Below are positions 11,785 to 44,270 of a stretch of 64,000 bases of DNA, in pieces. The translations under genes and the position numbers were made by a program. This stretch comes from Actinomycetota bacterium (GTDB taxonomy: Bacteria > Actinomycetota > Acidimicrobiia > Acidimicrobiales > JAMCPL01), in the NCBI GenBank assembly GCA_023379675.1, contig JAMCPL010000016.1, forward strand, positions 34,407 through 98,406, written 5' to 3'. How positions within the stretch are numbered: position 1 is the first letter of the stretch; the number at the start of each line of letters is the position of its first letter. Under the pieces are notes generated by a model. That model ran no database searches. It saw only the letters and a program-made list of their open reading frames with translations, and was not told the DNA's origin.

Positions 11785-11836
11785 GGTGTTTGACCAAGGA
11801 TAGCGCTAAGCCGCTCGCATGTGGTGGACACCTCGC

Positions 11837-13273
11837 TCATTCCGTGGCTCGAGACTGAGGCCTCAGCGTAGGAAAGGCGATCACGTCCCTAATGCTCGGC
11901 TGATCGGTCAGCAGCATGACAAGACGATCCATGCCCATTCCCAGACCGGCAGTGGGAGGCAGTCCATGCTCGAGCGCGTGTATGTAGTCCTCGTCCACCG
12001 TCATCGCTTCCTCGTCACCATTGGCATGCCGGAGCGCTTGCATCTCGAACCTCGACCTCTGATCATCGGGGTCAACCAGCTCCGAGAAGGCATTGGCAAG
12101 TTCCCTACCTGCTATCACCACCTCGAACCTCTCCACCAACGCCTGGTTGTCCCTGTGGCGCCGGGCAAGAGGAGAAACCTCTACGGGAAAGTCTTTCACG
12201 ATCACAGGACCCCAAAGATGCGCTTCGCATGCCTTCTCATATATCTCCATCAAGAGTTTCCCGCTACCCCAACCACTCTCAGGAACAGTCCCCAGATCTC
12301 TCAGGAATTCGGTCATCACTGTAACAGGGGTATCCACTGTAAAGGCGCAACCAGTACTCTCCTCCACCAGCTCCTCCAAGGTGGCCCTCCTCCAAGGTGG
12401 CTCGAGATCCACCTCCTTGCCTTGGTAAATGATCCTGGTGGTACCCAGTAATTTCCTGGCGAGAGTACTGACGAGCGACTCCATGGACACCATGAGATCC
12501 TCGTAATCTGCATACGCTTGGTAAAGCTCCAGGATGGTGAACTCAGGGTTATGCCTGGGCGATATTCCCTCGTTCCGGAAGACCCGGCCAATCTCGAACA
12601 CCTTTTCGAAACCTCCGACCACCAGGCGTTTCAGGTAGAGCTCCGGCGCTATACGGAGGTAGAGATCCATGTCCAGCGCATTATGGTGAGTTACGAAGGG
12701 TCTAGCCAGCGCGCCGCCTGCAATAGGATGTAGCATGGGTGTCTCCACCTCGACGAACCCTTCCTCCTCCAACATCCTCCTGGTCTCACTTATTATGGTA
12801 GAACGCGACTGGAGTATCTCACGAGAGCGTGCGTTGGCCCACAGATCCACCTCCCGTTGCCTGTAACGGATCTCCACGTCGGTGATGCCGCGCCACTTGT
12901 CTCCGAACGGCAGCCTGGCCTCGGCCAGCATCACCCAGTCCTCCACCAGTATCGACAACTCGCCCCGCTTTGTCTTCACCACCTTGCCATTGGCCCCTAT
13001 CCAATCGCCGAGAGAAAGCCTGGTGAACTCCTTGAACTTTGCCGTGGTAGCTGCACGGGCAAATAGCTGTACCTGCCCGGAGGAATCCACCAGGGTCACA
13101 AAAGCGATCTTCCCCTGGCTTCTGACGAGCATCGCCCTGCCGGCCACGCTGTGACGCACTTCGGTCTCTTCTTCGGCAGCCAGGTCCGAGAACTGGTCAT
13201 GCAGCAAAGCGGCGGTCGTGGTTCTCTCGTAACGGTACGGTATGCAAGATGATGGGTCTTCAGCCATGTCCAC
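11837..13273 (-). CDS. lysS: Lysyl-tRNA synthetase (class II)
   Basis: OB domain, GGALARPF, LRIAPELYLKRL, FRNEG, HNPEFT, PPTAGLGMG.DRLVM. Confidence 0.97.
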   Translation of the reverse strand: MDMAEDPSSCIPYRYERTTTAALLHDQFSDLAAEEETEVRHSVAGRAMLVRSQGKIAFVTLVDSSGQVQLFARAATTAKFKEFTRLSLGDWIGANGKVVKTKRGELSILVEDWVMLAEARLPFGDKWRGITDVEIRYRQREVDLWANARSREILQSRSTIISETRRMLEEEGFVEVETPMLHPIAGGALARPFVTHHNALDMDLYLRIAPELYLKRLVVGGFEKVFEIGRVFRNEGISPRHNPEFTILELYQAYADYEDLMVSMESLVSTLARKLLGTTRIIYQGKEVDLEPPWRRATLEELVEESTGCAFTVDTPVTVMTEFLRDLGTVPESGWGSGKLLMEIYEKACEAHLWGPVIVKDFPVEVSPLARRHRDNQALVERFEVVIAGRELANAFSELVDPDDQRSRFEMQALRHANGDEEAMTVDEDYIHALEHGLPPTAGLGMGMDRLVMLLTDQPSIRDVIAFPTLRPQSRATE

Positions 13274-24280: not shown

Positions 24281-25084
24281 ATGTCCATTGCCTACGAAGT
24301 GAGGTCAGATCATAAGGCGCTTTACAATGGACGGACGCTAAAAGAATGGATACCTGATATTGTCACCGCACTGGTAGCCGAGGTTGACCCCGTTCAGATA
24401 TACGTATTCGGTTCTGTTGTCCGTGACGAAGACGGTCCTGACAGCGACTTGGATATTTTAGTCGTGTTCGACAGGATAGAGAACGATCAGCTATGGTCCA
24501 TGAAGAGCAAGGCAGGGGTGGCTACCGCCGGCTACGTTCCCCGCGATGTGCTTGTCACCGACTTGGCCCGCTTCGAGTTCAACAAGCAGAGACTCTGGCA
24601 TATAGAACACGAGGTTGCGGAATCAGGTCAGCTGGTATACAGCCGTGAACCTCGGATACCAAAGGAGATGTACATGAATCCACCACCGGTAGACAATGAT
24701 GCAGATGCCGGCTATTGGCTGGAAAGAGCAAAGAGGGATTCAAAGGCAAGTAACCATCACCAAGTAAACGACCAACCTCTTGCACTCTACCTTGCCCAGC
24801 AGGCTGCTGAAAAGGCACTCAAGGCGCTGATAATCTCTGACGGGATAGGTTGCCCAAAGACTCATGACCTAAGCGAGTTGGCAAAGGCACTTCCTGCCGG
24901 CCATAGTGATCGTTTTAATACGGATCTTTTCAACTTGAAGAATCTCAATGATCTCACCAAATGGGAGGTTGAGGGACGTTACCCCGCCATAGTGGACAAT
25001 TTCAGCGATGATGATGCAGAGCGACTGTTTGCCACATCTGGCCATATATTGGAAACAGTGGAAAGTATAATCGGCAAGAGCTAA
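24281..25084 (+). CDS. Fused minimal nucleotidyltransferase (MNT) plus HEPN domain protein
   Basis: FGS..R.....DSDLD(I)LVV MNT motif; C-terminal WLERAKRD..A...AQQAAEKALKA....KTHDL..L...RYP HEPN motif; visibly more AT-rich than its flanks. Confidence 0.85.
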   Translation: MSIAYEVRSDHKALYNGRTLKEWIPDIVTALVAEVDPVQIYVFGSVVRDEDGPDSDLDILVVFDRIENDQLWSMKSKAGVATAGYVPRDVLVTDLARFEFNKQRLWHIEHEVAESGQLVYSREPRIPKEMYMNPPPVDNDADAGYWLERAKRDSKASNHHQVNDQPLALYLAQQAAEKALKALIISDGIGCPKTHDLSELAKALPAGHSDRFNTDLFNLKNLNDLTKWEVEGRYPAIVDNFSDDDAERLFATSGHILETVESIIGKS

Positions 25085-29526: not shown

Positions 29527-29716
29527 ACAACTGACTCAGAACCATATCACGATATAGAAAAGCCACAATATATCGTGGCCTATATTTACCTATACCGCAC
29601 GATATATGAAGCGCTGATCTGTCTTTCGACGGTTCCGATCCCGCTGGTCTCTCGACCCACCCTTCTGACGGCAACGATCCAACTTGACAATAGAGTGGCT
29701 TAAACCAGATGCCGGC

Positions 29717-32155
29717 TCAGGATGCTGGAGATGCAACGGTAAGCGCCGCCTCACGTACCTCCGTTGCAAAGTCGATTGCCCTGGCCTCCATGTTGGAGTG
29801 CGCAAGCTGAGCGGTGGCGACCACCTTAGCACCCTTGCTCTCGAACGCCTTCGCCACCACCCTGGACACGTTCTTCGGAGACACGCCGTAGGTGCAGAAC
29901 ACGGCCACCCTCTTGCCCCCAAGTCTCGGGAGCCCTTCCATCCAGGCTCGCGTAGTCTTGGCCGGCTTCACTCCGGCGAAGACAAACCCCTCCACCCATG
30001 TTCCGAGCACGATAAGATCCGCCCATGCCATCTCCGCCAAGCCCACCCTGGAGATCGGCAGGAACTTCACGGAGGCGCCCCTACCCCTCAATGATCCCGC
30101 TACGATAGACGCTGCCTTCTCGGTGTGGCCGGTGAGCGAATCATAGACAACCAGCACCCGTCTGGCGCTACCGCCAGTACTACCACCTGTACCACCTGTA
30201 TCGCCTGTGTAAGTGGCCCCTGATCCAGCCCCAGCCGATCCTGTGCTCAAGTGACTCCTCCTTGCAGGGATCGATGGGCGGGAGCGCAGTATGGCCTCTG
30301 CAGCCCTCTTGCCCTGGGACATCGACTCCACAACCGTCGATGGACCGATCAAGGCATCCCCGGCTACCCAGGTCCTGTCACGCACCGCAAGTGACGCTGA
30401 CATCAGACCCATCTCGCGGTTGACCGAAAGAGTGCCTACCGGATTGGAGTTGCAGAACTTCGATGCATCGTTGTGCAGTATGCCACTCGCCACCCAGCGC
30501 CTATCGGGCATACCTTTGGCCACCTTGCGGATGGGCGTTCCCGGGAGGTACTTGGCAAGCTCGGCATCGACCCTGTACCCCATGGCCATCACCACAAGAT
30601 CAATCTCGACAGTGCGCACCTTGTCCTTCAGCACTTTCGGAAGTTTTGACCTGTCGTTCTGTACCGTAGATGCGAGCACGGCCCTCTTTACACGGCCGTT
30701 TTCCCCTTGGAACTCAATCAAGGTGCTGGAGAAGTTGGCTTCGACGCCCTCCGCTTCGGCCTCGGCGAGTTCGTCCGGCCTCACCAGTGCAAAACGCCTA
30801 TCCAGCCAGTCGACGCAGATCGCCTGTGAAGCCCCAAGACGAAGAGCCGAACGGGCCACGTCCATTGCGGTATTACCTGCGCCAAGGACGAGAACCCTCG
30901 GCCCTTTGGCAGGATGGGAAGTGCCGGTTAGACTGGTTCCGGCCGCCTCGCCGGAGCCGGTACCGGCCAACTCAAAGCCACTGCCAGCCGACTTGTTGCC
31001 CAACCGAACCCTGTTGAAAACCTCCTCGACATCTACCGCCTCGCCGGAGCCGGTACCGATTGCACCTGGAAGGCCGACCTCCTCTATACCCTCCCTCGTA
31101 TCGAGAGCATCCTTCGCCCTCTTCAGGAACCAGGTGGCATCGGTGATACCGTCGAGGTCGGCGCCCGGAACCGGAAGCCTGATCGGCTTGCTCGCACCAT
31201 GACACAGTACGACTGCATCCATCTCCGCAAGGAGCCTATCAATGTCGCCGTCCTGCACTTCCACGCCTAAACGAAGATCGACCCCTGCCTGCTGCAATGT
31301 GTCCCACGGGCGCTTCGCCACGGCATCGGGCAGGGTAAAGTCGGGTATACCCCACCTCAGCAACCCTCCCAGATCCCCGTCCTTCTCGAACACCGTGACG
31401 GATGCACCTGCCTGGACAAGGGTGGAAGCCGCCCCGATACCTGCTGGCCCTGCACCGACTACGGCGACGGACATCCCCTCACCATCATCAGAGAGCCGCT
31501 CGAGCGGTGGCACCGGCTCGTTGTCGGTGATAAAGCGTTCGATCAGGCCAATTGCAACCGGCTTCTCACCAGCCAGCGACCATGAGCAGGAACCCTCACA
31601 CTGGGCTGACTGGTCGCATACACGTGAACACACATCCGGAAGGAATGACGTGTTCCGCAAGATCGAGTGGGCACGGGAAAGATCGCCCTCCCTAACCGCC
31701 CGTATGAATCCCGGAATGTCGTTGTGCGCCGGGCAGCCTCTCACGCAGGTGGGGTCAGGGCAGTCGAGGCAGCGCATCGCTTCCTGCCGGGCAGCATCGA
31801 CCGATGGGATACCCTTACGCATCTCTTGGTTGTCACCGAGCACCGGATCGAGATGCAACACTTCCCGCTCCACCCGCTCTCCTGCAAGCGCAGGTCCTTC
31901 AATGACGATGGCACTGAACGGGCAGGTTCTCTCACACTGCCTGCAACCCACACACAAGGTGTCATCGCCCTGTGCGATCCATAGGTCAGTGTGCATCGTA
32001 AGTGCGCCTTTCGGACACCGTATTACGCACTCCTGGCAGCCTGCGCAGCGCTCAGCATTTACGTGGATGGACGGCATCGTGAGGGTGCCTCTCGGTGACC
32101 CTGTAGCACCTTCACCTCGGCCTGCAGCGCCGTGCCTCTCTTCCGTAATAGTCAT
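29717..32155 (-). CDS. 2[4Fe-4S] ferredoxin - GltD/NfnB-like flavoprotein - flavodoxin triple fusion
   Basis: CAGCQECVIRCP and CVGCRQCERTCP; CLDCPDPTCVRGCP, CSRVC..QCEGSC, IGLIERF; GAGPAG; GAGNTAMD; AGD...GPSTVV; C-terminal VVYDSLTGHTEKAA...LGTW...AVFCTYG flavodoxin. Confidence 0.85.
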   Translation of the reverse strand: MTITEERHGAAGRGEGATGSPRGTLTMPSIHVNAERCAGCQECVIRCPKGALTMHTDLWIAQGDDTLCVGCRQCERTCPFSAIVIEGPALAGERVEREVLHLDPVLGDNQEMRKGIPSVDAARQEAMRCLDCPDPTCVRGCPAHNDIPGFIRAVREGDLSRAHSILRNTSFLPDVCSRVCDQSAQCEGSCSWSLAGEKPVAIGLIERFITDNEPVPPLERLSDDGEGMSVAVVGAGPAGIGAASTLVQAGASVTVFEKDGDLGGLLRWGIPDFTLPDAVAKRPWDTLQQAGVDLRLGVEVQDGDIDRLLAEMDAVVLCHGASKPIRLPVPGADLDGITDATWFLKRAKDALDTREGIEEVGLPGAIGTGSGEAVDVEEVFNRVRLGNKSAGSGFELAGTGSGEAAGTSLTGTSHPAKGPRVLVLGAGNTAMDVARSALRLGASQAICVDWLDRRFALVRPDELAEAEAEGVEANFSSTLIEFQGENGRVKRAVLASTVQNDRSKLPKVLKDKVRTVEIDLVVMAMGYRVDAELAKYLPGTPIRKVAKGMPDRRWVASGILHNDASKFCNSNPVGTLSVNREMGLMSASLAVRDRTWVAGDALIGPSTVVESMSQGKRAAEAILRSRPSIPARRSHLSTGSAGAGSGATYTGDTGGTGGSTGGSARRVLVVYDSLTGHTEKAASIVAGSLRGRGASVKFLPISRVGLAEMAWADLIVLGTWVEGFVFAGVKPAKTTRAWMEGLPRLGGKRVAVFCTYGVSPKNVSRVVAKAFESKGAKVVATAQLAHSNMEARAIDFATEVREAALTVASPAS

Positions 32156-32347
32156 GATGCAAAATCTCCTTTCCGGCGCTCGTAGCTGTTATGCTTACGA
32201 CCAAGCCTGTTACCGTTCCTTGCCATTCCTTACAATTCCTTGTTGTTCCTTACCGCTCTCTGCTATTTCCCGTGCCGGCTACCCGTCATCTGTCTCCCTG
32301 CCTGCCTTTGCCTACCACTTGCCTGCTCACGCCTGTAATTCTACTCA

Positions 32348-34300
32348 TCACGACGCAGCATGCATGGGGATGTAGAGCAACAGCATGCTCATCCCTATGG
32401 CCACCACCATGAAGATGGACATTGCCTTTGCCAACGCGGGACGGCTTGCCAATGAAGCCATATCCCTCTTGAATATCCTCTTCATCACCCAGAGCGATAG
32501 GAGCAGGCCGGCCGCCATAACGGCAAGCTGTATGCCTACGATCTGCCACCCGATATACGATGGCAGGTTGTCAAAGCTCTTCACGTGCTGAGCAAAAATA
32601 GTCATGTTGTACCATCCGGTATGCACGCCGAGTTCTCCAAGGACGGAACTGACCACTCTGGGCGTATGCTTGATGAACCTGGGTAGCTGCCGGGCAAGGT
32701 AGTCGGCCGCTGTCACCGGTATGAGGGCGTAGGCGAATGGTACATACCATTGCTTCCACGAGGAAGCGATTCTCTTCTTAGTAGTCTGTTTGGCGGTCTG
32801 TGGATGCAACCCGATGCTGCCAGACACGGCGCCGGTACCATCACTGCCACTATCGCCATACTGCGCTGAGCGAAGCTGTCCGTCACCACTTGAGCCATCG
32901 CGCACCAGCGTGCTGACACCTCCAGCTTCTCCTGTCATGCTACCGTGACCCAGACTACTCTCCGACCTTGCTCCAGCACCAGCATAGGATAATTTGCCTG
33001 ATGATGCAGCCGATGAAGTGTTTATCAGGAGTCCTTCGCTCACCTCGCCATATGCCGTAGTGCGCCCATCTATGGAGCTATCATAAGCCATACTCACGCT
33101 CTGCCTGCGTGCTGCCACGGCCCGTATAGCCAGCCCCGCACCGACTACCACCAGTGCAAAGACCGCTATGAGCCCAAGGTAATCTATAGGATTGGGATAG
33201 GGGATACCTGTGTACTTGGTAAGCCAGGCATCTGCAGTGGCGTAGATGTTCAATGCGTTCACCTGCTGGAACACGACCAGGCCGAGCAGGAGTGACACTC
33301 CAAGAGCGATGTCCACCCGGCGCTTGCTCGGAGCCACGACCGAGGTAAGGGGCTTCTGCACAAAGAGACCTATATTGCCGTACGGGCATGCCTTGTAACA
33401 TTCGCTGCATAGCCCGCAGAGCAGGTTCGAGTCCGCGCTGCCCGGCCAGGTGTACCACGGGCAACCAAAGCCCTTCTCGTTGCCTCTCATGCAGTCCTTG
33501 GTCGGGCACGATATGCATTTCTCGCGATCTCTGGTGCGGAAGCCGGCCACCGACCCCATTGCTCCGACAGTGCCGATCAGGGAGGATAGCGGGCAGATGT
33601 AGCGGCAGAAGGTCCTGCGCTCGAAGAGTAGGAAGACTATGAGAGCAGAGCCGACAATGCCCATTACCATGAAGCTGGTGTCATATGCAGGACCCGGACC
33701 GGCTATATTGAAGAACTCCTCTATCCAAGTAAGAATTATGAATGTAGTTACGGATATAAGTAGCCCATATCCTGCCCACTTTTCAGGAAGCTTCCAACCC
33801 AGACCCAGTGCCTTCTGGGTACGCTTGAAGAATGCCTTGCGCTGTATCCACTCACCGAACCCACCAAACGGGCACATCGAACACCACGCCCTCCCCACGA
33901 CCACCATCATCACAAATACGAGGCAGAACCACACATACCAGGTAATGGCGGCACCGAAACTGCGACCCGGGGCCAGACTCGGAAAGACCAGACCAAGCAC
34001 AATCACAGCCCAGAAGATCACCTGATTGGGGAGTATAAGAAAGAACTGGAACTTCCTCGACTGCATAGCTCTAGCCAGCAGCTTGCCCAGCACCGGGATG
34101 CGCGTCACATCGATAGGCGGGTCGGTCTCGGCAAATCTGGTCCTAGCCGCCCTGCGCTCCGGTGGGCGCAAACGCACCTTGATTGGCGCCGGTCCGGGCG
34201 GGGGCTGCACCGAAGCATTGTCCTCCGGTGACCACGGATCCGCGAGTCCGGTATCCTCCGCCGCTCTCGTCGCTTGCATCTCTTCTGTTACCGTCACCAT
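32348..34300 (-). CDS. Multi-TM polyferredoxin (NapH/RdxA/FixG/FtrD-like 4Fe-4S membrane protein)
   Basis: GRAWCSMCPFG, RTFCRYICP, CISC...DC..GCP, CGLCSECYKACP; about 9-10 TM helices; start near 34297-34300 after AAGGAG. Confidence 0.82.
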   Translation of the reverse strand: MVTVTEEMQATRAAEDTGLADPWSPEDNASVQPPPGPAPIKVRLRPPERRAARTRFAETDPPIDVTRIPVLGKLLARAMQSRKFQFFLILPNQVIFWAVIVLGLVFPSLAPGRSFGAAITWYVWFCLVFVMMVVVGRAWCSMCPFGGFGEWIQRKAFFKRTQKALGLGWKLPEKWAGYGLLISVTTFIILTWIEEFFNIAGPGPAYDTSFMVMGIVGSALIVFLLFERRTFCRYICPLSSLIGTVGAMGSVAGFRTRDREKCISCPTKDCMRGNEKGFGCPWYTWPGSADSNLLCGLCSECYKACPYGNIGLFVQKPLTSVVAPSKRRVDIALGVSLLLGLVVFQQVNALNIYATADAWLTKYTGIPYPNPIDYLGLIAVFALVVVGAGLAIRAVAARRQSVSMAYDSSIDGRTTAYGEVSEGLLINTSSAASSGKLSYAGAGARSESSLGHGSMTGEAGGVSTLVRDGSSGDGQLRSAQYGDSGSDGTGAVSGSIGLHPQTAKQTTKKRIASSWKQWYVPFAYALIPVTAADYLARQLPRFIKHTPRVVSSVLGELGVHTGWYNMTIFAQHVKSFDNLPSYIGWQIVGIQLAVMAAGLLLSLWVMKRIFKRDMASLASRPALAKAMSIFMVVAIGMSMLLLYIPMHAAS

Positions 34301-34604
34301 TACTCCTTTCAAGGGTAAGGGGCCTCTCCGCAACACGTTCCCAACATGTACATCGTGCCCAGATCGATCACTCCCGCGATTATCGCCTTCATGACGCCGC
34401 TCGGACACATATGGACAGGTCCCTGAACCCGTACCCAACTGCGTAGCACCCCATCGGAAATGCTCCGCAGTCACCTGCTGGGCTCTCTCGACAGGACTCC
34501 CGCATATATGCTTGCATGCTCTACCTATAGGGTGCGCTTTTTTGGAAGGGGCGACCAGGGTACAAAAGCACCTACGTAGTGACCAATTACGTAGGGGACT
34601 ACCC

Positions 34605-35717
34605 CTATACGTACGGTACGTGTGCCCGTACGGTACTTCCTCTACCGGGCGCGGATTGTACGTAGAGATTCCCGCCTACGAGTTGGGCGCGCTCGTACAT
34701 GCCCAACATGCCGAAGTGCTCACCGTGATAGAACCCGTCGGGCCCAATAAAGCCCAATCCGCCCGATCCGGTGGAACCTCCGGATAGGAAGTCGTCCGAT
34801 ACCCGGAATCCGATCCCGTCATCGACTATCTCCAATTCTACGGCATCCTCTCCGAAGTGGAGAGTCATACTGCCATGACGGGCACCCGCATGCCGGGCCA
34901 CGTTGGAGAGTGCTTCTTGCGCGATTCGGTATAGTGCGAGTTCCGTGGAGTCATCAAGGATGCGTGATGGCGCCTTTCCCAACACCTCGAACTCTACATC
35001 AAGTGAATCGGTGGCTGCATCCTCCGCCAACCTCGCCAAGGCCACTTCGAGACCAAGATCTTCCAGCGCGGGCGGCCTCAGCCCCCTTACCACCTCCCGG
35101 AGACCCTTTACCGACTCGTCGACAAGCTGGCGTGCCTGGGCCATGGCGTCCCTCGCACTGCCAGGCAGATCGGGGGCTTTGCTGACCGCGGATACCTTCC
35201 TTCCAAGCTGGATCAGAGTCTGCAGCGTCTCGTCATGCAACTCGCGAGCAATGCGGCTGCGCTCCTCCTCCAGCCCGGAGAGCACGGCCTGAGCATATGC
35301 CTCCACCTTGGACCTTGCGGCCTTGTAGGCATCATTGAGGTCATGCTCCCGCTGCATGCGCCAGCCGGCAAACACTCCCACCACGATGACAATAGCCACC
35401 ATGATGATATCGCCCGTCATGTCCAGCGTCTCCCCGTGAATGCCATCAATCACAATGTCGGGAATCCACAAGATGACCACCCATGCTGTCAGGGCGACCG
35501 ATCCACTCAGCCCGAAGCGCAACGCCCCGTAGAGTATGGGAAGTATGAGAAGCGCAGGTACATCACTGTCCGGGAATATATTGAAGGCATGGCTATCAAG
35601 CAACATCTGCCCACCAACAATGCCCGCGCAAAGCGCCACGGCCACCCAGAATCTCCAATCCCTGAAAGGACCCGTGCCCGTAGATACTGGTACCCGGTAG
35701 GGAACGCTCGACGGCAT
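34605..35717 (-). CDS. Membrane sensor histidine kinase (HisKA_3/NarX-DesK type)
   Basis: Four TM helices, ERSRIARELHD, YRIAQEALSNV.RHA, DDG.GF, G..GM.ERA..VGG. Confidence 0.92.
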   Translation of the reverse strand: MPSSVPYRVPVSTGTGPFRDWRFWVAVALCAGIVGGQMLLDSHAFNIFPDSDVPALLILPILYGALRFGLSGSVALTAWVVILWIPDIVIDGIHGETLDMTGDIIMVAIVIVVGVFAGWRMQREHDLNDAYKAARSKVEAYAQAVLSGLEEERSRIARELHDETLQTLIQLGRKVSAVSKAPDLPGSARDAMAQARQLVDESVKGLREVVRGLRPPALEDLGLEVALARLAEDAATDSLDVEFEVLGKAPSRILDDSTELALYRIAQEALSNVARHAGARHGSMTLHFGEDAVELEIVDDGIGFRVSDDFLSGGSTGSGGLGFIGPDGFYHGEHFGMLGMYERAQLVGGNLYVQSAPGRGSTVRAHVPYV

Positions 35718-35728
35718 CGCCGGTCGAC

Positions 35729-36493
35729 CTAGGAAGTCGATGGCATGGTTCCGGACCCGTATCCGGGCATGGTTCCGGGCAGCTTGCCGTCAGTACTCGT
35801 GGCCGCAGCACTGGTATTAGCACCACTGGCGGTGGCAGCCGTGCTTACAAGGCCCTTTTCCATGGCAAATACCGAGAGCCTGGTCCTCGAATTGACCCCG
35901 AGCTTGTCGAAGATATGTCGAATATGAGTCTCAACCGTGCGTCTGGATATGTCAAGCCTGTCCGCAATGGCCTTGTTGGAGAGGCCCTCCACCACCATCT
36001 TCACCACCTCGAGTTCCCGGTCCGAAAGCGTGGATGGCGGGCCTGACTCTGCCGGCAGGTCGTCGGCTCCCTCCCTCAGCCCCATCGCCAAGGACCTGTC
36101 GACCACCACCGCCCCTGATCGCAGGGCATATATGGCATTGATGATCTCCTCGTCAGGAGCACTCTTCAGAAGGTAACCAGAGACCCCCGCCGCCAGCGCC
36201 GAGCGCAGGTAATCGCTGTCACCGTAGGCTGACAGTACGAGCAATTTCATCTGCGGAAACTCTTTGGACAGCCGCTTGGCAAACTCTATACCGCTCTCAC
36301 CAGGAAGCCGCACATCGAGGACGATGATATCCGGAATGCGCTCCTTGATCAATATGTACGCATCCTTGGAGTTGCCGGCCTCCCCCACCACCAGCACATC
36401 CCCGTGTTCCTCCAGTATCTCCTTCGTACCCTGGCGCACGACCGGATGATCGTCGACCAGCACCACACTCAACTGATGATTTTCCACCAACAT
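35729..36493 (-). CDS. NarL/LuxR family response regulator
   Basis: VDDH, LDV phospho-Asp, GYLLK, LSDRELEV..G.SNK.IA..L.IS.RTVE.H. Confidence 0.94.
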   Translation of the reverse strand: MLVENHQLSVVLVDDHPVVRQGTKEILEEHGDVLVVGEAGNSKDAYILIKERIPDIIVLDVRLPGESGIEFAKRLSKEFPQMKLLVLSAYGDSDYLRSALAAGVSGYLLKSAPDEEIINAIYALRSGAVVVDRSLAMGLREGADDLPAESGPPSTLSDRELEVVKMVVEGLSNKAIADRLDISRRTVETHIRHIFDKLGVNSRTRLSVFAMEKGLVSTAATASGANTSAAATSTDGKLPGTMPGYGSGTMPSTS

Positions 36494-36878
36494 ACCCCAT
36501 AACCTACTTTCACGAGACCAATCGACCGAGAACTATACAAACTTTACCTGGGCACCTTCAGCACCTATACTAGCCATTCTGCACTGTGGCGACGGGAATA
36601 CCAACGGTGGGTGCACGGATAACGACGCCGTATTTACCCCGACCCTCCATACGTATTTACCGCACCATACGCACAATCAATGCGTGCCAGCCCACCGTGG
36701 TTCTTCGCATAAATGTGCTGACGGACCTCACCGTACCATGCGAAGCCATGAGAATTACCCAGCGTACCTATCACCATGCGGCACCTAGCCACTCTTTCCT
36801 GCCCAAATCCACTCCGATTGACTTCTTAGCGCACGCGCCAACCGCCCTGTCCATCCCCTCGGCACCCAACTGATAAGA

Positions 36879-37550
36879 TTGACCTCAGTGGAAGGCACTC
36901 CTATCACAATACTGCTCGCTGACGATCACGCCGTCGTAAGGGAAGGGATACGCCAGATAATCGAACGCAGCGCCGACATGCAAGTGATCGGGGAGGCGGG
37001 TGACGGTGAAACAGCCATCGAACTGGCTCGCCGCTCGCTGCCCCAGGTGGCGTTACTCGACATCCGCCTCCCTGGAATCACCGGGATAGAGGCGGCACAG
37101 CAGATATCTAAAGTGTCACCAGAGACGAAAGTCCTCATCTTGAGCGCATACGCCGAGCAGGCGTACATAGAAGCGGCCATGGAGGCCGGGGTGCATGGAT
37201 ACCTGTTGAAAAGCGCACCGGGCCGGGTGCTCCTGGACTCGATCCGAGCAGTACGCTCCGGAGCTATGGTGCTGGATAGCTCGCTGCCAAGAGGTCCTAT
37301 CGGCCACCCCGTCGATCACCCACCGGATGACGGTGAAACTCCGGTACTCACTCCACGGGAACTGGAGATAGTTGCTCTGGTCACCAAGGGATATCGCAAC
37401 AAGCAGATCGCAATGGAGCTGGGAGTGTCCCTAAGGACCGTAGAGAGCCACTTGGAGCACATCTTCGACAAGGTGGGCAGCACCTCCCGTACAGAGCTCT
37501 CCATGTTCGCAGTGGCCCACGGCTGGGTCGATCCAAACCGGGACGACTAG
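36879..37550 (+). CDS. NarL/LuxR family response regulator (second copy, divergent)
   Basis: ADDH, LDI, GYLLK, LTPRELEI..G..NKQIA..L.VS.RTVE.H. Confidence 0.93.
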   Translation: MTSVEGTPITILLADDHAVVREGIRQIIERSADMQVIGEAGDGETAIELARRSLPQVALLDIRLPGITGIEAAQQISKVSPETKVLILSAYAEQAYIEAAMEAGVHGYLLKSAPGRVLLDSIRAVRSGAMVLDSSLPRGPIGHPVDHPPDDGETPVLTPRELEIVALVTKGYRNKQIAMELGVSLRTVESHLEHIFDKVGSTSRTELSMFAVAHGWVDPNRDD

Positions 37551-37684: not shown

Positions 37685-40600
37685 CTACGACGTAGCCGCC
37701 GTAAACCATCCCGACACATCGACAAGCACGTTGACACTGCCACTTCCACCGCCATTGGCAATATTCACCGTACCACTCGAAGTGAGCCCGCCAATCACCA
37801 TGTTCGCACTAGTGGTGCCAACCCCAAAGTTGACGTCTGAAGTCGTCGGAGCAGTACTGCCTGAATATACCGTCAGGTAACCTCCACCGGTTCCACCGGT
37901 TGCAGTGACATTGCCAACAAACGCAGTTGCGCTGCTCGGTATACTATCAATACCTGTCACCTGAGCGGTGATCGACTTGCCTGCCGATACCGCCCCCAGC
38001 GTCGCATTGGCACTGGGCAGGTTTTCAGAAGCACAGAAGCTCGGCGCTGACGACACGCTGCACCTGGTATCCACAATCCTTGCCGGTGTGACCGGGTTGA
38101 ATAGCGAACCAGTCTGGCTGGTGGATGACCCATCGGTGTAGTAGCCGCTCACGTCCACTATGAAGTTGGCGGTGCCGGAATTGTTATAGAGCGTGATTGC
38201 CCCATTGGCACCGACTTCTACGATCACCCTGTTCGGTACGGTCTGGCCGGCAATCCAGTTGACGGTTGACACCGTAGCCTTGCTGGCGCCTGCAGGGTAG
38301 GCGGTGAAGTAACCGCTACTGGATGTGTTAACTGCAGTGAGATTCAACACCACTGCAGATACTCCACTTGATGGGACCGGACCAACACCAGTTACCGTGA
38401 CGTTCTCAGTCTTGCCTGCACCGAGGGTAACGAGCTTACCATTGGCACTCGGAATGGCCGAGCAGTAGCTGCTTGTTATACCAGTAGGCAACGGCGACTC
38501 GCTGCACCTGCTGTCCGCCAATCTTGTCGGAGTGACGGCATTGTAAAGACCAGCGGGTGTACTACCCGGAGGTGCGTAGTAGCCCTCTATGTCCACTATG
38601 TAGTTCACAGCGCCACTCGTGCCGCCATTGGCCACGCTAATCTCACCATTCGAGGTGTTTACAGGCACCGTCACCAGGTTGGTAACCACCTTAGTGGTAG
38701 ATGTCCAGTTGAGACTGGAAACCACCGCAGGGGTCGAGCCCTCAGGATAGATGCTCAAGTAACCGCCACCAGTCATATTGACTGCAGTCACATTAACCAC
38801 AACGGCTGTAGCGGTCAACGGAATGGCATCCACGCCGGTTACGGCCACATTCTCGGACTTACCTGCCGCCAGGGTACCAAGAGATGCATTTGCACTCGGC
38901 AGGTTCTCACCAGCACAGTAGCTTGGCGCCGGTGAAGCGCTGCAACGCGTGTCGGCCAGCCTCATCGGGTTCACTGGCGTATATGCATCACCGCTAATCG
39001 CCACCACATATGTGAACTGATCGGCAGATGAGGTCGCTGACGTGCCTCCAGCGGTGGTGACTGTCACATTGACCGTGCCTGCAGACTCCGCAGGAGAGGT
39101 GGCGACAATCGACGTTGACGAGCTGACCGTTGCGGCGGTCGCAGTCACCGCACCGAACATCACCGTAGCACCAGAGGCAAAATTGGTACCTGTGATAGTA
39201 ACTGCGGTACCGCCAGAAGTCGGGCCGGATACTGGGCTGATGCCACTTACCGTAGGCAGCGCAATTATGGTGTAACTCGATGTATTGACAGGCACAATGT
39301 CAGTCGAAGTGTTGACACCGAGTGTGTAGCTGCCCATCGCTGGGTTGGTCACCCCACTTACAGCAACTGTGACAGCGGTCGAATCAGCAACCGCAACCGG
39401 ACTGGTAATAGTAACCGTATCGGTACCACCACCCGAAACGGTAGCAGCAGCGGTAGCATTGACCGTGTAATCACCAGCACTGGTCGGGAACACTGTACCG
39501 CTTGGGGCAGTGAAGGTAATAGTACCACTGTTGGCGGCAAGCGCACCACTGGAGCTGGTTGTAAAGCCAACCGTGTACGTTGCACTTACACCGGCCAGAT
39601 TGCTGCTTGGACTTGGACCCGTAACGCTTGAGACGGACGAACCAATAGCATAAGAGGCTGTGTCCACAGGTACCGTATCCGACGACGTGTTCACCGCCAT
39701 GGTATAGCTACCACTGGATGGATTAGTGACACCCGATATGGCAACCTTCACTACCGACGAATTGCCTATCGCAATCGGCGTGGTGATCGTAACCGCACTC
39801 GTGCCACCACCACTCAGTGTCGTTACTGCAGTACCACCTACCGTGTAATCCGATGCAGCAGAGGGAAATATCGTACCGCTCGGAGACGTGGTTAGAGTAA
39901 TCGTACCGCTACCCGCCGCCAGTGCGCCAGTTGTGCTGGTCGTGAAGCCAACAGTGTAGGTGGCACTAGTAGCCGGTGTCGCCGGACTTGGCGATGGCCC
40001 CGTTAGGCTTGACACCGCACCTGTGATTTGATAGCTACCGGTGGAACTGGGAGCCAGATCAGCCGAAGTATTTACATTCAACATGTAAGTTCCTGCGGGT
40101 GGATTGACAACACCCACGATAACAATGCTAACCGGCATAGTGACACCCACCGCCGTGGGAGTGGTGATGGTAGCCGTCGAGTCCGAGTTACTAAGTGCAA
40201 CCGTAGATGCCGCTACAGCAGCACCGCTATTCACACTGACCGTATATGCCGACGCCGCAGACGGGAACACGGTACCCGCAGGCGCTGCGAGGGTGATCGT
40301 ACCCGTTCCAGCCGAAAGCGCACCGCTGGAACTGGTTGAGAAGCCCACAGTATACTGCGCAGACTCGCCAGAACCCTTCAGCGTCATCGAAACACTAGGA
40401 CTACTGACTGCACTCTCGATCGTGTAGCTCGAGGTAGGCACGACAGCTTGATCCGCCGAAGTACTTAGATACTCGCTGTAGGTGCCGGGCGAAGGATTGG
40501 TAACACCGTTGATCACAAGTGTTCCTGCGGCGGAATCAGCAATACTCTGCAGCGGCTGTAACTCCACTTGGGCACAACTCCATCCACTTAGTGCGGCTGG

Positions 40601-43600
40601 AAGAGCTGATGGGCATGTTGCCGCAGCACTATGAGCAGCTATACCGTCAACCACAAAATCCGATGCACTTGACGTAGGCAGCCCCGTCGCTGTGCCACCA
40701 GTTGCCGCAGGCGGTACCACAACATAAACATAGTTGAGGATACTACTGGTAGTGGTGTCAACTAGCCCGCCAGTCGCACTGGTAGTGAAGCCATACACGT
40801 ACTGCGCCGTTGTCGGATCAGCAGCCAAATTGCTAACCATGGGGCCGGTAACCTTGCTGAGACCGGTATACACAGAAATAGATGGCTCCAAAGGCGATGT
40901 ACCATAGGCACAGGTAACACCACCAAGTGGGCAACTGTCCGACGAGGTGGTGATATCCATAGAGTATGTAGTAGACGGAGCCATCACTACCGGCCCATTT
41001 GTTACACCATTTATCACTACGGCAACTGAAGCACCGCCAGCCACATCCGTCGGCGTAGTGATCGTGACGGTCGCATCGGAATTACTGAGAGCCACTGTCG
41101 ATGCAACGACTCCGTTCACCGTATACGCAGTTGCAGATGACGGGAAAACGGTACCGCTCGGGGACGTAGCAAGAGTAATCGTACCTGTCCCTGCCGCTAA
41201 TGAACCACCGGTGGAACTCGTAGTGAAGCCAACCGTATAAAGTGCAGACTGGCCTGCAGCATTATTACTGGACTTCAAACCAGGACTAACAACCGACCCT
41301 GGGAGGGCAACAATTGTGTAACTCGGCCCAGGAACAAGACCCTTTGAATCGATGCTCGACTTCACTGAAAATGCGTATGAACCCGCAGCCGGATTTGTCA
41401 CACCACTTATTACAATAGTAACAGTAGCTGACGCGCCCACCGAAACCGGCAGATCAATGACCGGGACATCCGTAGTTGACGATGCTGCAAGGCTCACCGC
41501 AGCAACACCATTGACAACATAGTCCGAAGCAATGGTTGGCAATGCAGAGCCCGCGGTAGATGTAAGCGTTATGGTGTCATCAATGTTCAATCCGCCAGTA
41601 CTGCTTGTATTGAAAGACAGCACATACTGGTTACCAGGGGTAGTAGCAAAACTATTGGGTGATATACTCGGTCCCGTAACACCAGTTACAAATTGTGGCG
41701 ACGACAACGGCGACGACGGCACGTCATACCAATTACTGTTCACCGGCGTAGTGTCCGACGAGGTATCCACACTGAGCTGGTAGCGACCCGTTGCCGCATC
41801 AGTAGTGACGCTAACAGACACACTCACAACATCCGTGGCAGGCACCGCCGTTCCAATATCCAACGTTACCGAGTTCGATCCTGATACCGGAACGCTGCTG
41901 ACGGTAACCGAAGAGGTTGCCGTCGTGTTCGTAACGGTGTAGCTCCCGGTGGCACTTGGAAACTCAACTCCGCTCGGGGCCACGATGCTGATGCTACCGC
42001 CTGACTTTATACCACTTGTCGAGGTGAAGCTGATGCTGTAGGTGCCCGAGCTATCGGACGCACTAACGTCGCTAACTGCCGTTGCTGAAGTGATCGTATA
42101 TGAGGACGACGGAGACGGGTAGTCATTCGCCGACGTAAGTACCGCACCAAGCTCCGCAGTGTTGGAGGACACGGTCGGGTTGGTCACGCCAGCCACCACT
42201 ACGGTTACGCTAGAGGAGTCAGCCACCGATACCGGCGTAGTAATAGTTGCCATAACTATAGGACCAGAGGTCACCGGAGTAACTGTACCTGACGCAGCTA
42301 CTCCATTCACGGTGTAGTCCGTTCCAGAAGTCGGGAAGGCCGTACCTGCGGTGGCATTGGTACTCGACGCACTCGGAGCAACGAGCGTAATGGTATCCGT
42401 TCCGGCAGTAAGTGCACCGGTGCTGCCGGTAGTAAAGCTATAGGTGTAATTTGCGATTGCTCCCGATGCCAGACTGGTGGGATTGGGCCCGCTAACACTT
42501 GTCACCTCCGTAGCCACGTTAAACGCTACTTTTGCTGGAGCCTGATCTGTTGAATCACTCACATAAAGATCAGTTGAACCAGCAGTTGTTGTATTGGTAA
42601 CGCCAATCACATTGACCGTGACAGTCGTACCTGACGAAATAGTTCCTACCGGGTTGGATATGGTGACGCTGTCAGTTCCCCCACCCGTGATGGTGGTAGC
42701 GGCGACACCACCGGTGCCGGAATTCACCGTATACGAGCTTGGAGCTGTCGGGAACGCAGTTCCGGTCGGCCCCGTCAGCGTAATGGAGCCATTGGAAGCA
42801 ATCCCGCTTGTGGCAGAAAATGTAATTAGGTCATTGGAACCGCCACCTGCAAGTACCGCACTTGGGTCAGGACTTGTTGTAAGGGTTACCGAGCCAACCT
42901 CAGTAGGAGCCGTCACGATCGAGTAGCTGGAGGTAGCTACCGGTGCCGCATCCGAGGAGGTGGATACATCAAGGGTATAACTACCTGCAGATGTGGGATT
43001 GGTCACATCATACACGACCACGGTTACACTGGCAGAGTCAGGTATGGTTGTGGTCAGTGGATTGGTAATGACAGCACAGGTTGCGCCAGTCACAGTTCCG
43101 GATGGGCACGATGAACTCACACCAGTAGCGGCAACATTGTTCACTGTAAAATAGGATGGCGTCGCCGGCCATGTGGTTTTACCCGTTGGGTCAATCAAGG
43201 TAATGGTTCCCGGCGTCGTAGCCGTTGAAGCGGCAATTGCGCCAGTCGAGGAGGTTTTGAAGCCAATTGTGTAAATTGACGGATCACCTGCGTAGTTACT
43301 GTTTGGTCCACTTGGAGACGGACCTGTCACATTCGTAACTGAGGTGGCTACTGCCGAAATGGTGTAGCCGGAGGTGTTGACCGGAGCCGTGTCTGCGGAG
43401 GTGCTAACCGCCATGGTGTATGTCCCTGCAGGAGGATTGGTCACGCCGTTTGCCACGACAGTAACTGAAGTACCGTCAGCCACAGCCGTCGGAGTGGTGA
43501 TGGTCGCCGTCGCATTGGAGTTGCTCAGGCTGGGCGTTGCCGATACCGCTATGCCATTGACCGTGTACGCACTTGCAGAAGATGGGAAGACCGTGCCGGT

Positions 43601-43888
43601 CGGTCCGGCAAGCGTGATGGTTCCTGATCCGGACGCAAGCGCGCCACTGCCACTCGTGGTGAATCCGACCGTGTACAGCGATGACGCACCAGCCGTCGCC
43701 GGACTCGGGCTTGGCCCGCTATTGATTGTGACCGAGGTGGCCGCGAACGCGGTACTGCCCAGAAATGGCAACATACCGAGTCCCGCCATCAGCGCAATGC
43801 TCACGCTCGCTATCGCCCTACTGAAATAGCGCAACTTGGCGGACCGGACGGTCCCTGTTTGGCTGCTAATGGTTTCTTGCTCGTCCAC
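37685..43888 (-). CDS. Large secreted Ser/Thr-rich repeat surface protein (S-layer/adhesin candidate)
   Basis: Sec signal ending AFA|A; 11 repeats of about 125-145 aa (YTVGFTTS..GAL....TITL..P.GT.FP....YTVN...GVTNP..G.Y...V.TS.D); one IPT/TIG domain; three C-terminal P.R..D.R...VD..G[YW] repeats; likely GTG start at 43888 after AGAGGAGGT (ORF is open to 44113). Confidence 0.85.
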   Translation of the reverse strand: MDEQETISSQTGTVRSAKLRYFSRAIASVSIALMAGLGMLPFLGSTAFAATSVTINSGPSPSPATAGASSLYTVGFTTSGSGALASGSGTITLAGPTGTVFPSSASAYTVNGIAVSATPSLSNSNATATITTPTAVADGTSVTVVANGVTNPPAGTYTMAVSTSADTAPVNTSGYTISAVATSVTNVTGPSPSGPNSNYAGDPSIYTIGFKTSSTGAIAASTATTPGTITLIDPTGKTTWPATPSYFTVNNVAATGVSSSCPSGTVTGATCAVITNPLTTTIPDSASVTVVVYDVTNPTSAGSYTLDVSTSSDAAPVATSSYSIVTAPTEVGSVTLTTSPDPSAVLAGGGSNDLITFSATSGIASNGSITLTGPTGTAFPTAPSSYTVNSGTGGVAATTITGGGTDSVTISNPVGTISSGTTVTVNVIGVTNTTTAGSTDLYVSDSTDQAPAKVAFNVATEVTSVSGPNPTSLASGAIANYTYSFTTGSTGALTAGTDTITLVAPSASSTNATAGTAFPTSGTDYTVNGVAASGTVTPVTSGPIVMATITTPVSVADSSSVTVVVAGVTNPTVSSNTAELGAVLTSANDYPSPSSSYTITSATAVSDVSASDSSGTYSISFTSTSGIKSGGSISIVAPSGVEFPSATGSYTVTNTTATSSVTVSSVPVSGSNSVTLDIGTAVPATDVVSVSVSVTTDAATGRYQLSVDTSSDTTPVNSNWYDVPSSPLSSPQFVTGVTGPSISPNSFATTPGNQYVLSFNTSSTGGLNIDDTITLTSTAGSALPTIASDYVVNGVAAVSLAASSTTDVPVIDLPVSVGASATVTIVISGVTNPAAGSYAFSVKSSIDSKGLVPGPSYTIVALPGSVVSPGLKSSNNAAGQSALYTVGFTTSSTGGSLAAGTGTITLATSPSGTVFPSSATAYTVNGVVASTVALSNSDATVTITTPTDVAGGASVAVVINGVTNGPVVMAPSTTYSMDITTSSDSCPLGGVTCAYGTSPLEPSISVYTGLSKVTGPMVSNLAADPTTAQYVYGFTTSATGGLVDTTTSSILNYVYVVVPPAATGGTATGLPTSSASDFVVDGIAAHSAAATCPSALPAALSGWSCAQVELQPLQSIADSAAGTLVINGVTNPSPGTYSEYLSTSADQAVVPTSSYTIESAVSSPSVSMTLKGSGESAQYTVGFSTSSSGALSAGTGTITLAAPAGTVFPSAASAYTVSVNSGAAVAASTVALSNSDSTATITTPTAVGVTMPVSIVIVGVVNPPAGTYMLNVNTSADLAPSSTGSYQITGAVSSLTGPSPSPATPATSATYTVGFTTSTTGALAAGSGTITLTTSPSGTIFPSAASDYTVGGTAVTTLSGGGTSAVTITTPIAIGNSSVVKVAISGVTNPSSGSYTMAVNTSSDTVPVDTASYAIGSSVSSVTGPSPSSNLAGVSATYTVGFTTSSSGALAANSGTITFTAPSGTVFPTSAGDYTVNATAAATVSGGGTDTVTITSPVAVADSTAVTVAVSGVTNPAMGSYTLGVNTSTDIVPVNTSSYTIIALPTVSGISPVSGPTSGGTAVTITGTNFASGATVMFGAVTATAATVSSSTSIVATSPAESAGTVNVTVTTAGGTSATSSADQFTYVVAISGDAYTPVNPMRLADTRCSASPAPSYCAGENLPSANASLGTLAAGKSENVAVTGVDAIPLTATAVVVNVTAVNMTGGGYLSIYPEGSTPAVVSSLNWTSTTKVVTNLVTVPVNTSNGEISVANGGTSGAVNYIVDIEGYYAPPGSTPAGLYNAVTPTRLADSRCSESPLPTGITSSYCSAIPSANGKLVTLGAGKTENVTVTGVGPVPSSGVSAVVLNLTAVNTSSSGYFTAYPAGASKATVSTVNWIAGQTVPNRVIVEVGANGAITLYNNSGTANFIVDVSGYYTDGSSTSQTGSLFNPVTPARIVDTRCSVSSAPSFCASENLPSANATLGAVSAGKSITAQVTGIDSIPSSATAFVGNVTATGGTGGGYLTVYSGSTAPTTSDVNFGVGTTSANMVIGGLTSSGTVNIANGGGSGSVNVLVDVSGWFTAATS

Positions 43889-44270
43889 GGCTTTGTGACC
43901 TCCTCTGTCGTATTCCATGAATGGACCTTTGTTCGACTCTTGCACTTTGTCGCTCCACCTTTCGTATGCGCTCATGTACTTACCACCAAAATCTACACTC
44001 ATCCGATCTCCCGATGCAAATCCACCCGATCTCCGGGCCCGTCCCGAGCTTCTACTCTTACGGTTATCCATGTTTTCACCATTCATATTGCTGTCCGTAT
44101 GACTGTTTATCATACTTCAACGTATCTTGTCAAACTCATATCCATACTTGGCATTCATATTTTTGCGTGACACAGATGTGATCTTAACAGTAAAATGTCC
44201 TACTGCGCAAGTACTTGGCACAATATCCTACCTGACCAGGTATTTCCCCGGCTGTATCGCATGGTGTCAT

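Follow-up and report, generated by a model that had tools for sequence, protein, structure and literature searches.

A strictly paired NapH-like membrane iron-sulfur protein and ferredoxin-NfnB/GltD-flavodoxin fusion in Acidimicrobiia: a possible regulated NADH-to-membrane electron wire

We analysed a stretch of 64,000 nt from an Actinomycetota bacterium (GCA_023379675.1, contig JAMCPL010000016.1, positions 34,407 to 98,406 of the forward strand; hereafter the window), in which two adjacent genes encode a NapH-like membrane iron-sulfur (Fe-S) protein, called Mem below, and an 812-aa flavoprotein fusion, called Fus. The genome to which the window belongs consists of 2.34 Mb in 33 contigs, with the window on contig C16, and is 91% complete. 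We found that Mem and Fus form a strictly conserved functional module. The reading that we prefer, and to which we give about an even chance (probability near 0.5), is that this module is a regulated Fe-S wire from reduced nicotinamide adenine dinucleotide (NADH) to the membrane, where menaquinone would take up the electrons, and that the flavodoxin domain of Fus is an optional part of it.

The pairing was assessed in a survey of the GTDB set with one genome per species, which gave 281 loci with a Fus relative, of which the best 80 were taken. In each of the 77 loci that could be assessed, a Mem homologue stood directly upstream of Fus in the same orientation; the remaining 3 of the 80 had less than 320 nt of upstream sequence. 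Among related genomes, 10 of the 41 sampled carried a full-length Fus, with Mem adjacent in all 10. An earlier note on this DNA had proposed to check whether the neighbourhood is conserved across genomes, and both samples bear this out. The Mem stop codon lay 29–164 nt ahead of the first aligned Fus residue (at about residue 20–30), indicating that the two genes abut or overlap. Identity across loci amounted to 63–78% for the Mem core and to about 50% for Fus. When the neighbouring open reading frames (ORFs) of the 80 loci were clustered, no recurrent structural gene was found besides the pair, and only regulators recurred. The window's genome also contains a second, diverged pair on contig C27 (locus L089, 5728–9631), in which a Mem-like gene is followed by a gene for a 672-aa Fus-like protein. 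The latter is 36% identical to Fus, has no flavodoxin and shows an NADPH-type V-R-R where Fus has D-W-L. Such a second diverged pair is also present in genome G003. A gene for a NosD/beta-helix protein (10680–12650) lies 1 kb downstream of the C27 pair.

The domain content of Fus was established with Pfam. A 2[4Fe-4S] ferredoxin part (Fer4 dicluster, aa 31–83, encoded at 31907–32065) is followed by a Fer4_20 two-cluster domain (aa 119–213, 31517–31801, 1.4e-32), by the domains for flavin adenine dinucleotide (FAD) and NAD(H) (aa 228–625, 30281–31474; Pyr_redox_2 at 228–534, 2.5e-17) and, after a Gly/Ser/Thr linker that joins it to this core, by a flavodoxin domain (aa 666–805, 29741–30160; Pfam stretch 668–781). 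The matches to Flavodoxin_3 (29.0 bits, cut-off 27.5) and Flavodoxin_1 (27.6 bits, cut-off 25) were both just above threshold; a profile match to the flavodoxin 1fln_A had a value of 7e-11. The motifs were invariant in 15 of 15 aligned homologues: this applied to C37/40/43/47, C68/71/74/78, C129/132/137/141, C176, C180, C186, C190 and E206 (in IGLIERF), to the Rossmann glycines G234-x-G236 and G425-A-G427, and to S673/G676/T678 of the phosphate loop of the flavodoxin (YDSLTGHT, which fits S/T-x-T-G-x-T). The ORF, the Pfam matches and these motifs confirm the ferredoxin-NfnB/GltD-flavodoxin fusion of 812 residues that had been proposed. The best solved relatives were NfnB (4ylf_B, 2.9e-86), NfnI (5jca_L, 1.5e-81) and GltD (6s6s_G, 2.6e-66); compared with NfnB, Fus has some 50 additional residues (aa 543–595) that are specific to its family. 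The Y-R-R that follows the second Rossmann strand of NfnB ('VYRRTE' in 4ylf_B) aligned with 'VDWLDR' of Fus, in which D449 and W450 were invariant. According to the classical rule, an acidic residue at this position selects NADH over NADPH, and the D449-W450-L motif thus suggests that Fus would use NADH. The same logic of an acidic residue is stated for another site in the part of PMC12018979 that was available.

The gene upstream of Fus is co-oriented with it and encodes, as the earlier note had stated, a NapH-like membrane Fe-S protein. Mem matched Fer4_5 in two stretches (1.4e-11), with scores of 31.8 bits against the NapH/MauN model TIGR02163 (cut-off 213) and of 18.9 against PRK09477 (cut-off 234). 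It contains two Cys-Pro pairs, CxxCP (C140/C143) and CxxxCP (C232/C236), and two [4Fe-4S] motifs, C262/265/270/280 and C295/298/301/305, the Cys motifs being encoded at about 33386–33883. In an alignment of 37 sequences, 153 positions were kept in at least 97% of them; these included all 12 Cys and no His. We counted eight or nine hydrophobic helices, i.e. a four-helix core with four or five further helices. Hydropathy and loop charges predict that the N-terminus is inside, with 8 and 13 Lys plus Arg in the loops that carry the Cys motifs versus 0–1 in the outer loops; how the last three helices are oriented is uncertain. The accessible text of PMC5449189 reports the clusters of NapH at the cytoplasmic face, and the loop charges of Mem agree with this, which means that a cytoplasmic Fus could dock on the Mem clusters. 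A profile search of the PDB with Mem gave at best an E value of 0.02, and when the Mem model was compared by fold with 48,161 chains, only generic helix bundles came up (best Z 7.5, for 7znu_A, with a root-mean-square deviation of 5.8 over 147 residues). The matches in a protein atlas were Fer4_5 clusters with uninformative automatic names.

A domain with Fe-S clusters exported by twin-arginine translocation, as in the NapH-NapG fusion model found in the accessible text of PMC5449189, was considered for Mem and rejected, as the Arg-Arg pair before C232 belongs to the Fer4_5 motif and as helix 5 has no globular domain after it. Two public sequences (P0245 and P0246) combine a distant NapH-like membrane domain with cNMP-binding, GAF and sigma-54 activator domains, which suggests that some Fer4_5 proteins may be redox-sensing regulators.

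The flavodoxin proved to be dispensable. Among the 75 complete Fus genes of the 80 loci, 67 have it, while 8 stop at the end of the core, with no more than 43 residues beyond it or an overall length of 567–582 aa. In a maximum-likelihood tree of 79 Fus core sequences (L024, L043 and L034 were dropped as truncated or partial), the flavodoxin-less proteins fell at four separate places: L010; L077 with L085; L075; and L020 with L021, L026 and L039. L075 was nested in a clade with 99% support and the last four in a clade with 96% support, both with flavodoxin-bearing sisters. The domain has been lost four or more times, at separate places in the tree. Mem was kept beside all 8 flavodoxin-less genes, so that the constant unit consists of Mem, the ferredoxin and the GltD-like core. 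To judge from its distribution, the flavodoxin looks like a side port and fits poorly with a built-in low-potential output. A stand-alone flavodoxin of 148 aa, 41% identical to the flavodoxin domain of Fus, is encoded on contig C24, about 4 kb from a second, divergent NuoH-like gene (8.8e-32; coordinates of the two features 36450–37358 and 41654–42064).

The module is also associated with regulators. In 57 loci the sequence upstream of Mem extends for at least 2 kb, and 56 of these had an adjacent regulator, namely an Rrf2 protein (38 loci), a LuxR-type response regulator with a HisKA_3 histidine kinase (33 loci) or both (15 loci); in the single exception, downstream sequence is missing. The Rrf2 gene stood either divergent just upstream of the module or just downstream of it. 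The orthologue of the response regulator was found within 2.5 kb upstream of Mem in 33 of the 57 loci, and homologues of the kinase, including a match to its N-terminal residues 17–85, stood beside the module in 33 of the 57 as well. Some loci have a kinase with a PAS domain. The Rrf2 proteins reached the superfamily model only, and share C-x6-C-x5-C-x2-H, which is the ligand pattern of the Fe-S-sensing members. The window's lineage has no Rrf2; its two-component genes stand upstream of the module, in the same orientation. A non-coding block follows the kinase stop codon there; it consists of a hairpin, GGGGTAGTCCCC, and then ACGTAATTGGTC...CGTA, and is common only to the window, L006, L007 and L009. 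The 12-mer of this element occurs once in the window (34581–34592) and elsewhere in 3 of 92 loci (L006, L007 and L009). The block is a candidate for the terminator of the kinase gene and for an operator ahead of Mem. The regulators point to expression under the control of redox state, oxygen, nitric oxide or Fe-S status.

In the mechanism that we propose, Mem and Fus would form a membrane-anchored iron-sulfur flavoprotein complex. NADH would give up its electrons at the FAD in the GltD/NfnB-like core of Fus, and these would flow singly through the two Fer4_20 clusters and the two N-terminal ferredoxin clusters to the cytoplasmic clusters of Mem, and thence to an acceptor in the membrane. The helices of Mem contained no conserved His or extra Cys in the 37 aligned sequences, which argues against a transmembrane crossing through protein cofactors and makes a quinone the likeliest acceptor or donor; because Mem lacks a conserved His or another transmembrane cofactor site, we think most readily of menaquinone. 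A quinone link of Mem is plausible. The flavodoxin, with its flavin mononucleotide (FMN), would be an accessory port to soluble partners, outside the obligatory path. Dedicated redox-type regulators would set the expression of the complex, the HisKA_3/LuxR pair in the present case and the Cys3-His Rrf2 in other lineages.

The physical contact between the two proteins, which the earlier note had also wished to see checked, was modelled with Fus 25–640, Mem 60–400 and four [4Fe-4S] clusters. The median ipSAE was 0.55 (0.61, 0.36 and 0.55), the controls gave 0.00 as the best of 3, the runs agreed in at least 90% of the contacts and the partner pLDDT was at least 78. This passes the mark applied, which 116 of the 157 solved complexes also passed, as did 2 of the 215 mismatched pairs. 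However, only 18 of the 157 solved complexes scored 0.60 or less, yet both passing mismatches did, and custom alignments and riding [4Fe-4S] ligands fall outside the calibration. The prediction was therefore graded as weak support for contact between Mem and Fus.

This grading is one of several points that weigh against an NADH-to-menaquinone wire. The AlphaFold2 models were poor (pLDDT 62.3 and pTM 0.59 for Fus, 58.9 and 0.58 for Mem), so that the order of the cofactors given above is a guess. No quinone site could be identified in Mem. Many invariant polar residues of Mem (E194, E195, N198, Q345 and Q346) are at the predicted outer face, as are N348, D357, Y368, Y374 and, probably, the 537–586 loop, and a simple quinone reductase working from the cytoplasmic side gives no account of this polar conservation. 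The genome has complex I-type NuoH genes, and a further NADH:quinone enzyme is thus not needed for respiration as such. The two longer Mem-related proteins that were found, P0245 and P0246, are not Mem-Fus fusions, which is weak evidence in either direction. There were no RNA data among the 19 sequencing runs listed for the locus.

A rival reading, for which the strongly conserved predicted outer face of Mem speaks, is electron export: by way of a quinone bound to it, Mem would hand electrons from cytoplasmic NADH to an acceptor outside the cytoplasm or to an enzyme encoded elsewhere. A similar role has been suggested for NapH-like proteins such as NosR and PceC, or the pair might act as a metal reductase. 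The portion of PMC8238504 at hand describes NapH-like proteins as serving extracytosolic oxidoreductases in a modular way. The species name of one carrier, Aciditerrimonas ferrireducens, refers to iron reduction, and the regulators beside the module are of the redox/Fe-S type. On the other hand, no extracytoplasmic partner, FMN-binding domain or ApbE recurred in the 80 loci, the outer loops of Mem are short (at most about 50 residues), and its helices offer no conserved His or extra Cys for transmembrane electron transfer. We consider electron export rather unlikely.

It is also conceivable, but we judge it quite unlikely, that the pair is a new energy-coupled respiratory module, in which the Fe-S wire of Fus would be coupled to the membrane potential or to quinone chemistry through Mem, with its NapH core and five further helices and its invariant polar outer face, so that NADH could drive, or be driven by, the low-potential ferredoxin and flavodoxin domains. 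If so, it would be a third route, beside Rnf and FixABCX, to low-potential electrons in aerobic actinobacteria, and it would provide the first defined cytoplasmic electron partner for the cytoplasmic clusters of the NapH/NosR type.

Two further rivals were weighed. In the first, bifurcation, the FAD of Fus would split the electrons of NAD(P)H, as in NfnB, between Mem and menaquinone on the high-potential side and the built-in ferredoxin and flavodoxin on the low-potential side, or the flow would run the other way (confurcation). The earlier note had proposed bifurcation or reverse electron flow, with Mem perhaps replacing NfnA. NfnB is indeed a closer relative of the Fus core than GltD is, the core has low-potential carrier domains fused onto it and the conserved residues at the outer face of Mem would suit an energy-coupled quinone site. 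Moreover, the cluster motifs that the available text of PMC6405883 gives for NfnB (RCx2Cx4Cx3CP, and RVCxQxxQCx3C followed by Gx2ER) are found in Fus as R128-C129..C141-P142 and as R178-V-C180..C186..C190..G203-x2-E206-R207, with one residue fewer before the Gly. By contrast, the same text states that Arg187 of Thermotoga maritima NfnB forms a hydrogen bond with N5 of the bifurcating FAD and is kept throughout the Nfn homologues. The segment GIPEFRLP that carries this Arg (4ylf_B, 5jca_L and 5vj7_A) aligned with GIPDFTLP of Fus, in which Thr274 takes its place and was invariant in 15 of 15 sequences; the residue is Lys in GltD and Ala in the C27 paralogue. The NADPH-type YRR is D-W-L in Fus, and the flavodoxin was lost at four or more places in the tree. 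The domain PF10418, typical of NfnA (the [2Fe-2S], FNR-like partner), had no match in the genome, which is 91% complete, while the control matched 6 of 14 named genomes; nor did this domain recur beside the module in the 80 loci. Finally, NfnL-like FAD modules are described in the portion of PMC12018979 that we could consult as ordinary, non-bifurcating entry points for NAD(P)H in other complexes, for example NfnABC. Judged by these sequence markers, Nfn-type bifurcation by Fus is not supported, and we think it very unlikely; the substitution of the N5 Arg, the D-W-L motif and the losses of the flavodoxin together argue against the earlier idea of bifurcation.

In the second, the proton motive force or quinol would push electrons of NADH or quinol uphill onto ferredoxin or flavodoxin, in a role like that of Rnf or FixABCX in an aerobe. 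The built-in low-potential carriers of Fus would be appropriate for this purpose, and Mem has five helices beyond the NapH core, with the invariant polar and charged residues D533, R537, Q538, Q591 and R612. However, neither the profile search of the PDB nor the fold search detected homology of Mem to known ion-translocating subunits, and the flavodoxin is dispensable. We strongly doubt that the module works in this manner.

The idea that glutamate synthase, or an enzyme like dihydropyrimidine dehydrogenase, uses Fus as an alternative small subunit, with Mem beside it only by chance, is already contradicted and extremely unlikely: it would account for the database name 'glutamate synthase small chain' and for the NCBIfam gltD-type models that match the core, but these matches are far below the cut-offs (TIGR01317, 183.5 versus 447.7; TIGR01318, 226.2 versus 482.95; TIGR01316, 250.9 versus 471.75), Fus is invariably found next to Mem, and gltB in this genome has its own gltD. 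The genome contains four Fer4_20 genes; one of them (C7:43882–44208) is adjacent to gltB (PF01645, 3.2e-149; C7:45287–46381), making up a canonical gltBD, and Fus is thus not the only small subunit at the disposal of a gltB, as the earlier note had envisaged for the case that its proposal was wrong. The matches to gltB domains were on contigs C7, C26 and C14, and none was on C16. PF01180 (DHO_dh) had no match in the 91% complete genome or in Fus, while the control matched 14 of 14 named genomes. The statement that there is no gltB, nfnA or preA near the pair therefore holds, the gltB domains being on other contigs and PF10418 and PF01180 having no match in the genome.

The family is large: in databases, Fus-like protein clusters number more than 1,500 and Mem-like ones more than 600, all under generic names only, the Fus-like ones being called 'FAD-dependent oxidoreductase' or 'glutamate synthase small chain'. 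We found no description of the pair in the full-text literature (subscription journals are outside the coverage). The earlier view that the architecture had not been described thus stands as far as papers are concerned, but the architecture itself is common, with its more than 1,500 database proteins. Nearly all of the 80 loci came from metagenome-assembled genomes labelled Actinomycetes or Acidimicrobiales; a few had other labels (Streptosporangiaceae, Pseudonocardiales, Nanopelagicaceae and Chloroflexi). In an even sample of the phylum, a close Mem was found in 2 of 301 genomes (the window's genome and G264). Four further genomes of the 301 had distant Mem relatives (28–34% identity) with no Fus-like neighbour; the genes around them, which encode an aldehyde dehydrogenase, an FtsX/MacB permease and unknown proteins, were uninformative. 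The module is common among Acidimicrobiia of soils, peat, lakes and mine waste and rare elsewhere in the phylum; it may be a lineage-typical, regulated branch of electron transport in Acidimicrobiia. One carrier, Aciditerrimonas ferrireducens JCM 15389, is cultured and has a divergent Rrf2, Mem and Fus on one short contig, the end of which cuts Fus. With this strain and the closed genome G264, experiments are feasible. The electron partner of the cytoplasmic Fe-S clusters of the NapH/NosR type has not been established, and a Mem subfamily that is locked to a cytoplasmic flavoprotein, apparently of the NADH type, makes this question testable. The two diverged copies in the window's genome, one seemingly of the NADH type with a flavodoxin and the other of the NADPH type ('VRR') without, offer a natural comparison.

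According to the ORF listing and Pfam, the module is part of a row of four co-oriented genes on the minus strand, in the order response regulator, histidine kinase, Mem and Fus, the 3' end of Fus facing a convergent gene for a GH15/trehalase-like protein (Table 1).

Table 1. Coordinates of the genes and non-coding features of the row in the window (HTH, helix-turn-helix; RBS, ribosome-binding site).
Feature	Coordinates	Strand	Evidence
Response regulator, receiver + LuxR/GerE HTH, first of the row	35729..36493	-	Pfam Response_reg 3.3e-26, GerE 4.5e-21
Membrane sensor histidine kinase, HisKA_3 + HATPase_c	34605..35717	-	Pfam HisKA_3 1.2e-15, HATPase_c 1.8e-13
Candidate kinase terminator + operator, non-coding	34560..34604	-	Conserved in the window, L006, L007 and L009
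Mem, 650 aa from ATG 34300	32348..34300	-	Pfam Fer4_5; 37-sequence alignment; RBS at start
Mem-Fus intergenic spacer, 192 nt	32156..32347	-	Comparison with L006 and L007
Fus, 812 aa, predicted cytoplasmic	29717..32155	-	Pfam, NCBIfam, 15-sequence alignment
Terminator-like hairpin, 136 nt past the Fus stop, before the convergent GH15 gene	29560..29581	-	Consensus scan only

The longest ORF for Mem is 32348–34474(-), and the ATG at 34300 was preferred as the start; it has AAAGGAG five bases upstream and agrees with the homologues. About 165 nt of the spacer between Mem and Fus form an additional A/G-rich segment, in which repeats (GGAAnnnnAA-like) recur with a period of 10 nt and which is missing from the closest relatives, L006 and L007. 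In these two loci, no more than about 30 nt separate the Mem stop codon from AAAGGAGATTTTG, after which comes the Fus ATG, and the insert of the window precedes the same RBS. The insert was unchanged in contigs of the runs X2, X3 and X5, i.e. in three runs from two studies. The proteins themselves also carry low-complexity stretches specific to the lineage, at residues 364–416 (30907–31065) and in the 632–663 linker of Fus and at about residues 400–500 (32801–33103) of Mem; the insert at 364–416 of Fus and that of Mem are rich in Gly, Ser, Thr and Ala and are lacking in most homologues. A scan of the region for promoters and terminators gave counts not above those of shuffled sequence. For terminator-like sites there were 4 versus a shuffle mean of 4.4, hence no excess, and the hairpin at 29560–29581 is a weak indication.

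Three other features of the window were noted. A second LuxR-type response regulator (36879–37550, +) is divergent from the first, and the two are 47% identical. The ORF at 37685–44113(-), of 2142 aa, matched only DUF2808 and one IPT/TIG domain and probably encodes a giant surface protein. At 24281–25084(+), a nucleotidyltransferase and a HEPN domain are joined in a single protein, as a fused NTase-HEPN pair.

Compared with known systems, Fus shares with NfnB/NfnL (4ylf_B and 5jca_L) the two [4Fe-4S] motifs with the Glu of Gx2ER and the Rossmann domains for FAD and pyridine nucleotide. It differs from them by the Thr in place of the N5 Arg, D-W-L in place of YRR, the additional ferredoxin and flavodoxin, and the insert of about 50 residues; its partner would be the membrane protein Mem, while NfnB works with NfnA, for which the genome gave no match. 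With GltD (6s6s_G, 2vdc_G and 7mfm_I) it has in common the Fer4_20 and Pyr_redox_2 core, an NAD(P)H-fed entry module into an Fe-S wire, but Fus is not beside gltB, its scores are far below the cut-offs and the Lys that GltD has at the N5 position is replaced by Thr. Dihydropyrimidine dehydrogenase (1gt8_A) also contains the Fer4_20 and FAD core (4.4e-43). Its single chain holds FAD, an NAD(P)H site, four [4Fe-4S] clusters and one FMN. The inventory expected for Fus is the same, except that the FMN would sit in a flavodoxin fold rather than in a DHO_dh barrel; the order of the domains also differs, and in Fus the FMN domain is dispensable. The models for AegA and YgfT of Escherichia coli (NF009408 and NF009451) matched the core of Fus far below the cut-off (201.7 versus 1003). 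These proteins consist of an N-terminal ferredoxin and a GltD-like core, and are not known to have a flavodoxin or a NapH-like partner. As for Mem, no NapG-like, FMN-binding or reductase gene was recurrent beside the module in the 80 loci. Mem shares with NapH (which acts with NapG) and with the Fer4_5 proteins NosR and PceC, as these are presented in the accessible parts of PMC5449189 and PMC8238504, the four-helix core, the two Cys-Pro pairs and the two [4Fe-4S] motifs on the cytoplasmic side. Unlike NapH, it has four or five extra helices, and its partner would be a cytoplasmic NADH flavoprotein.

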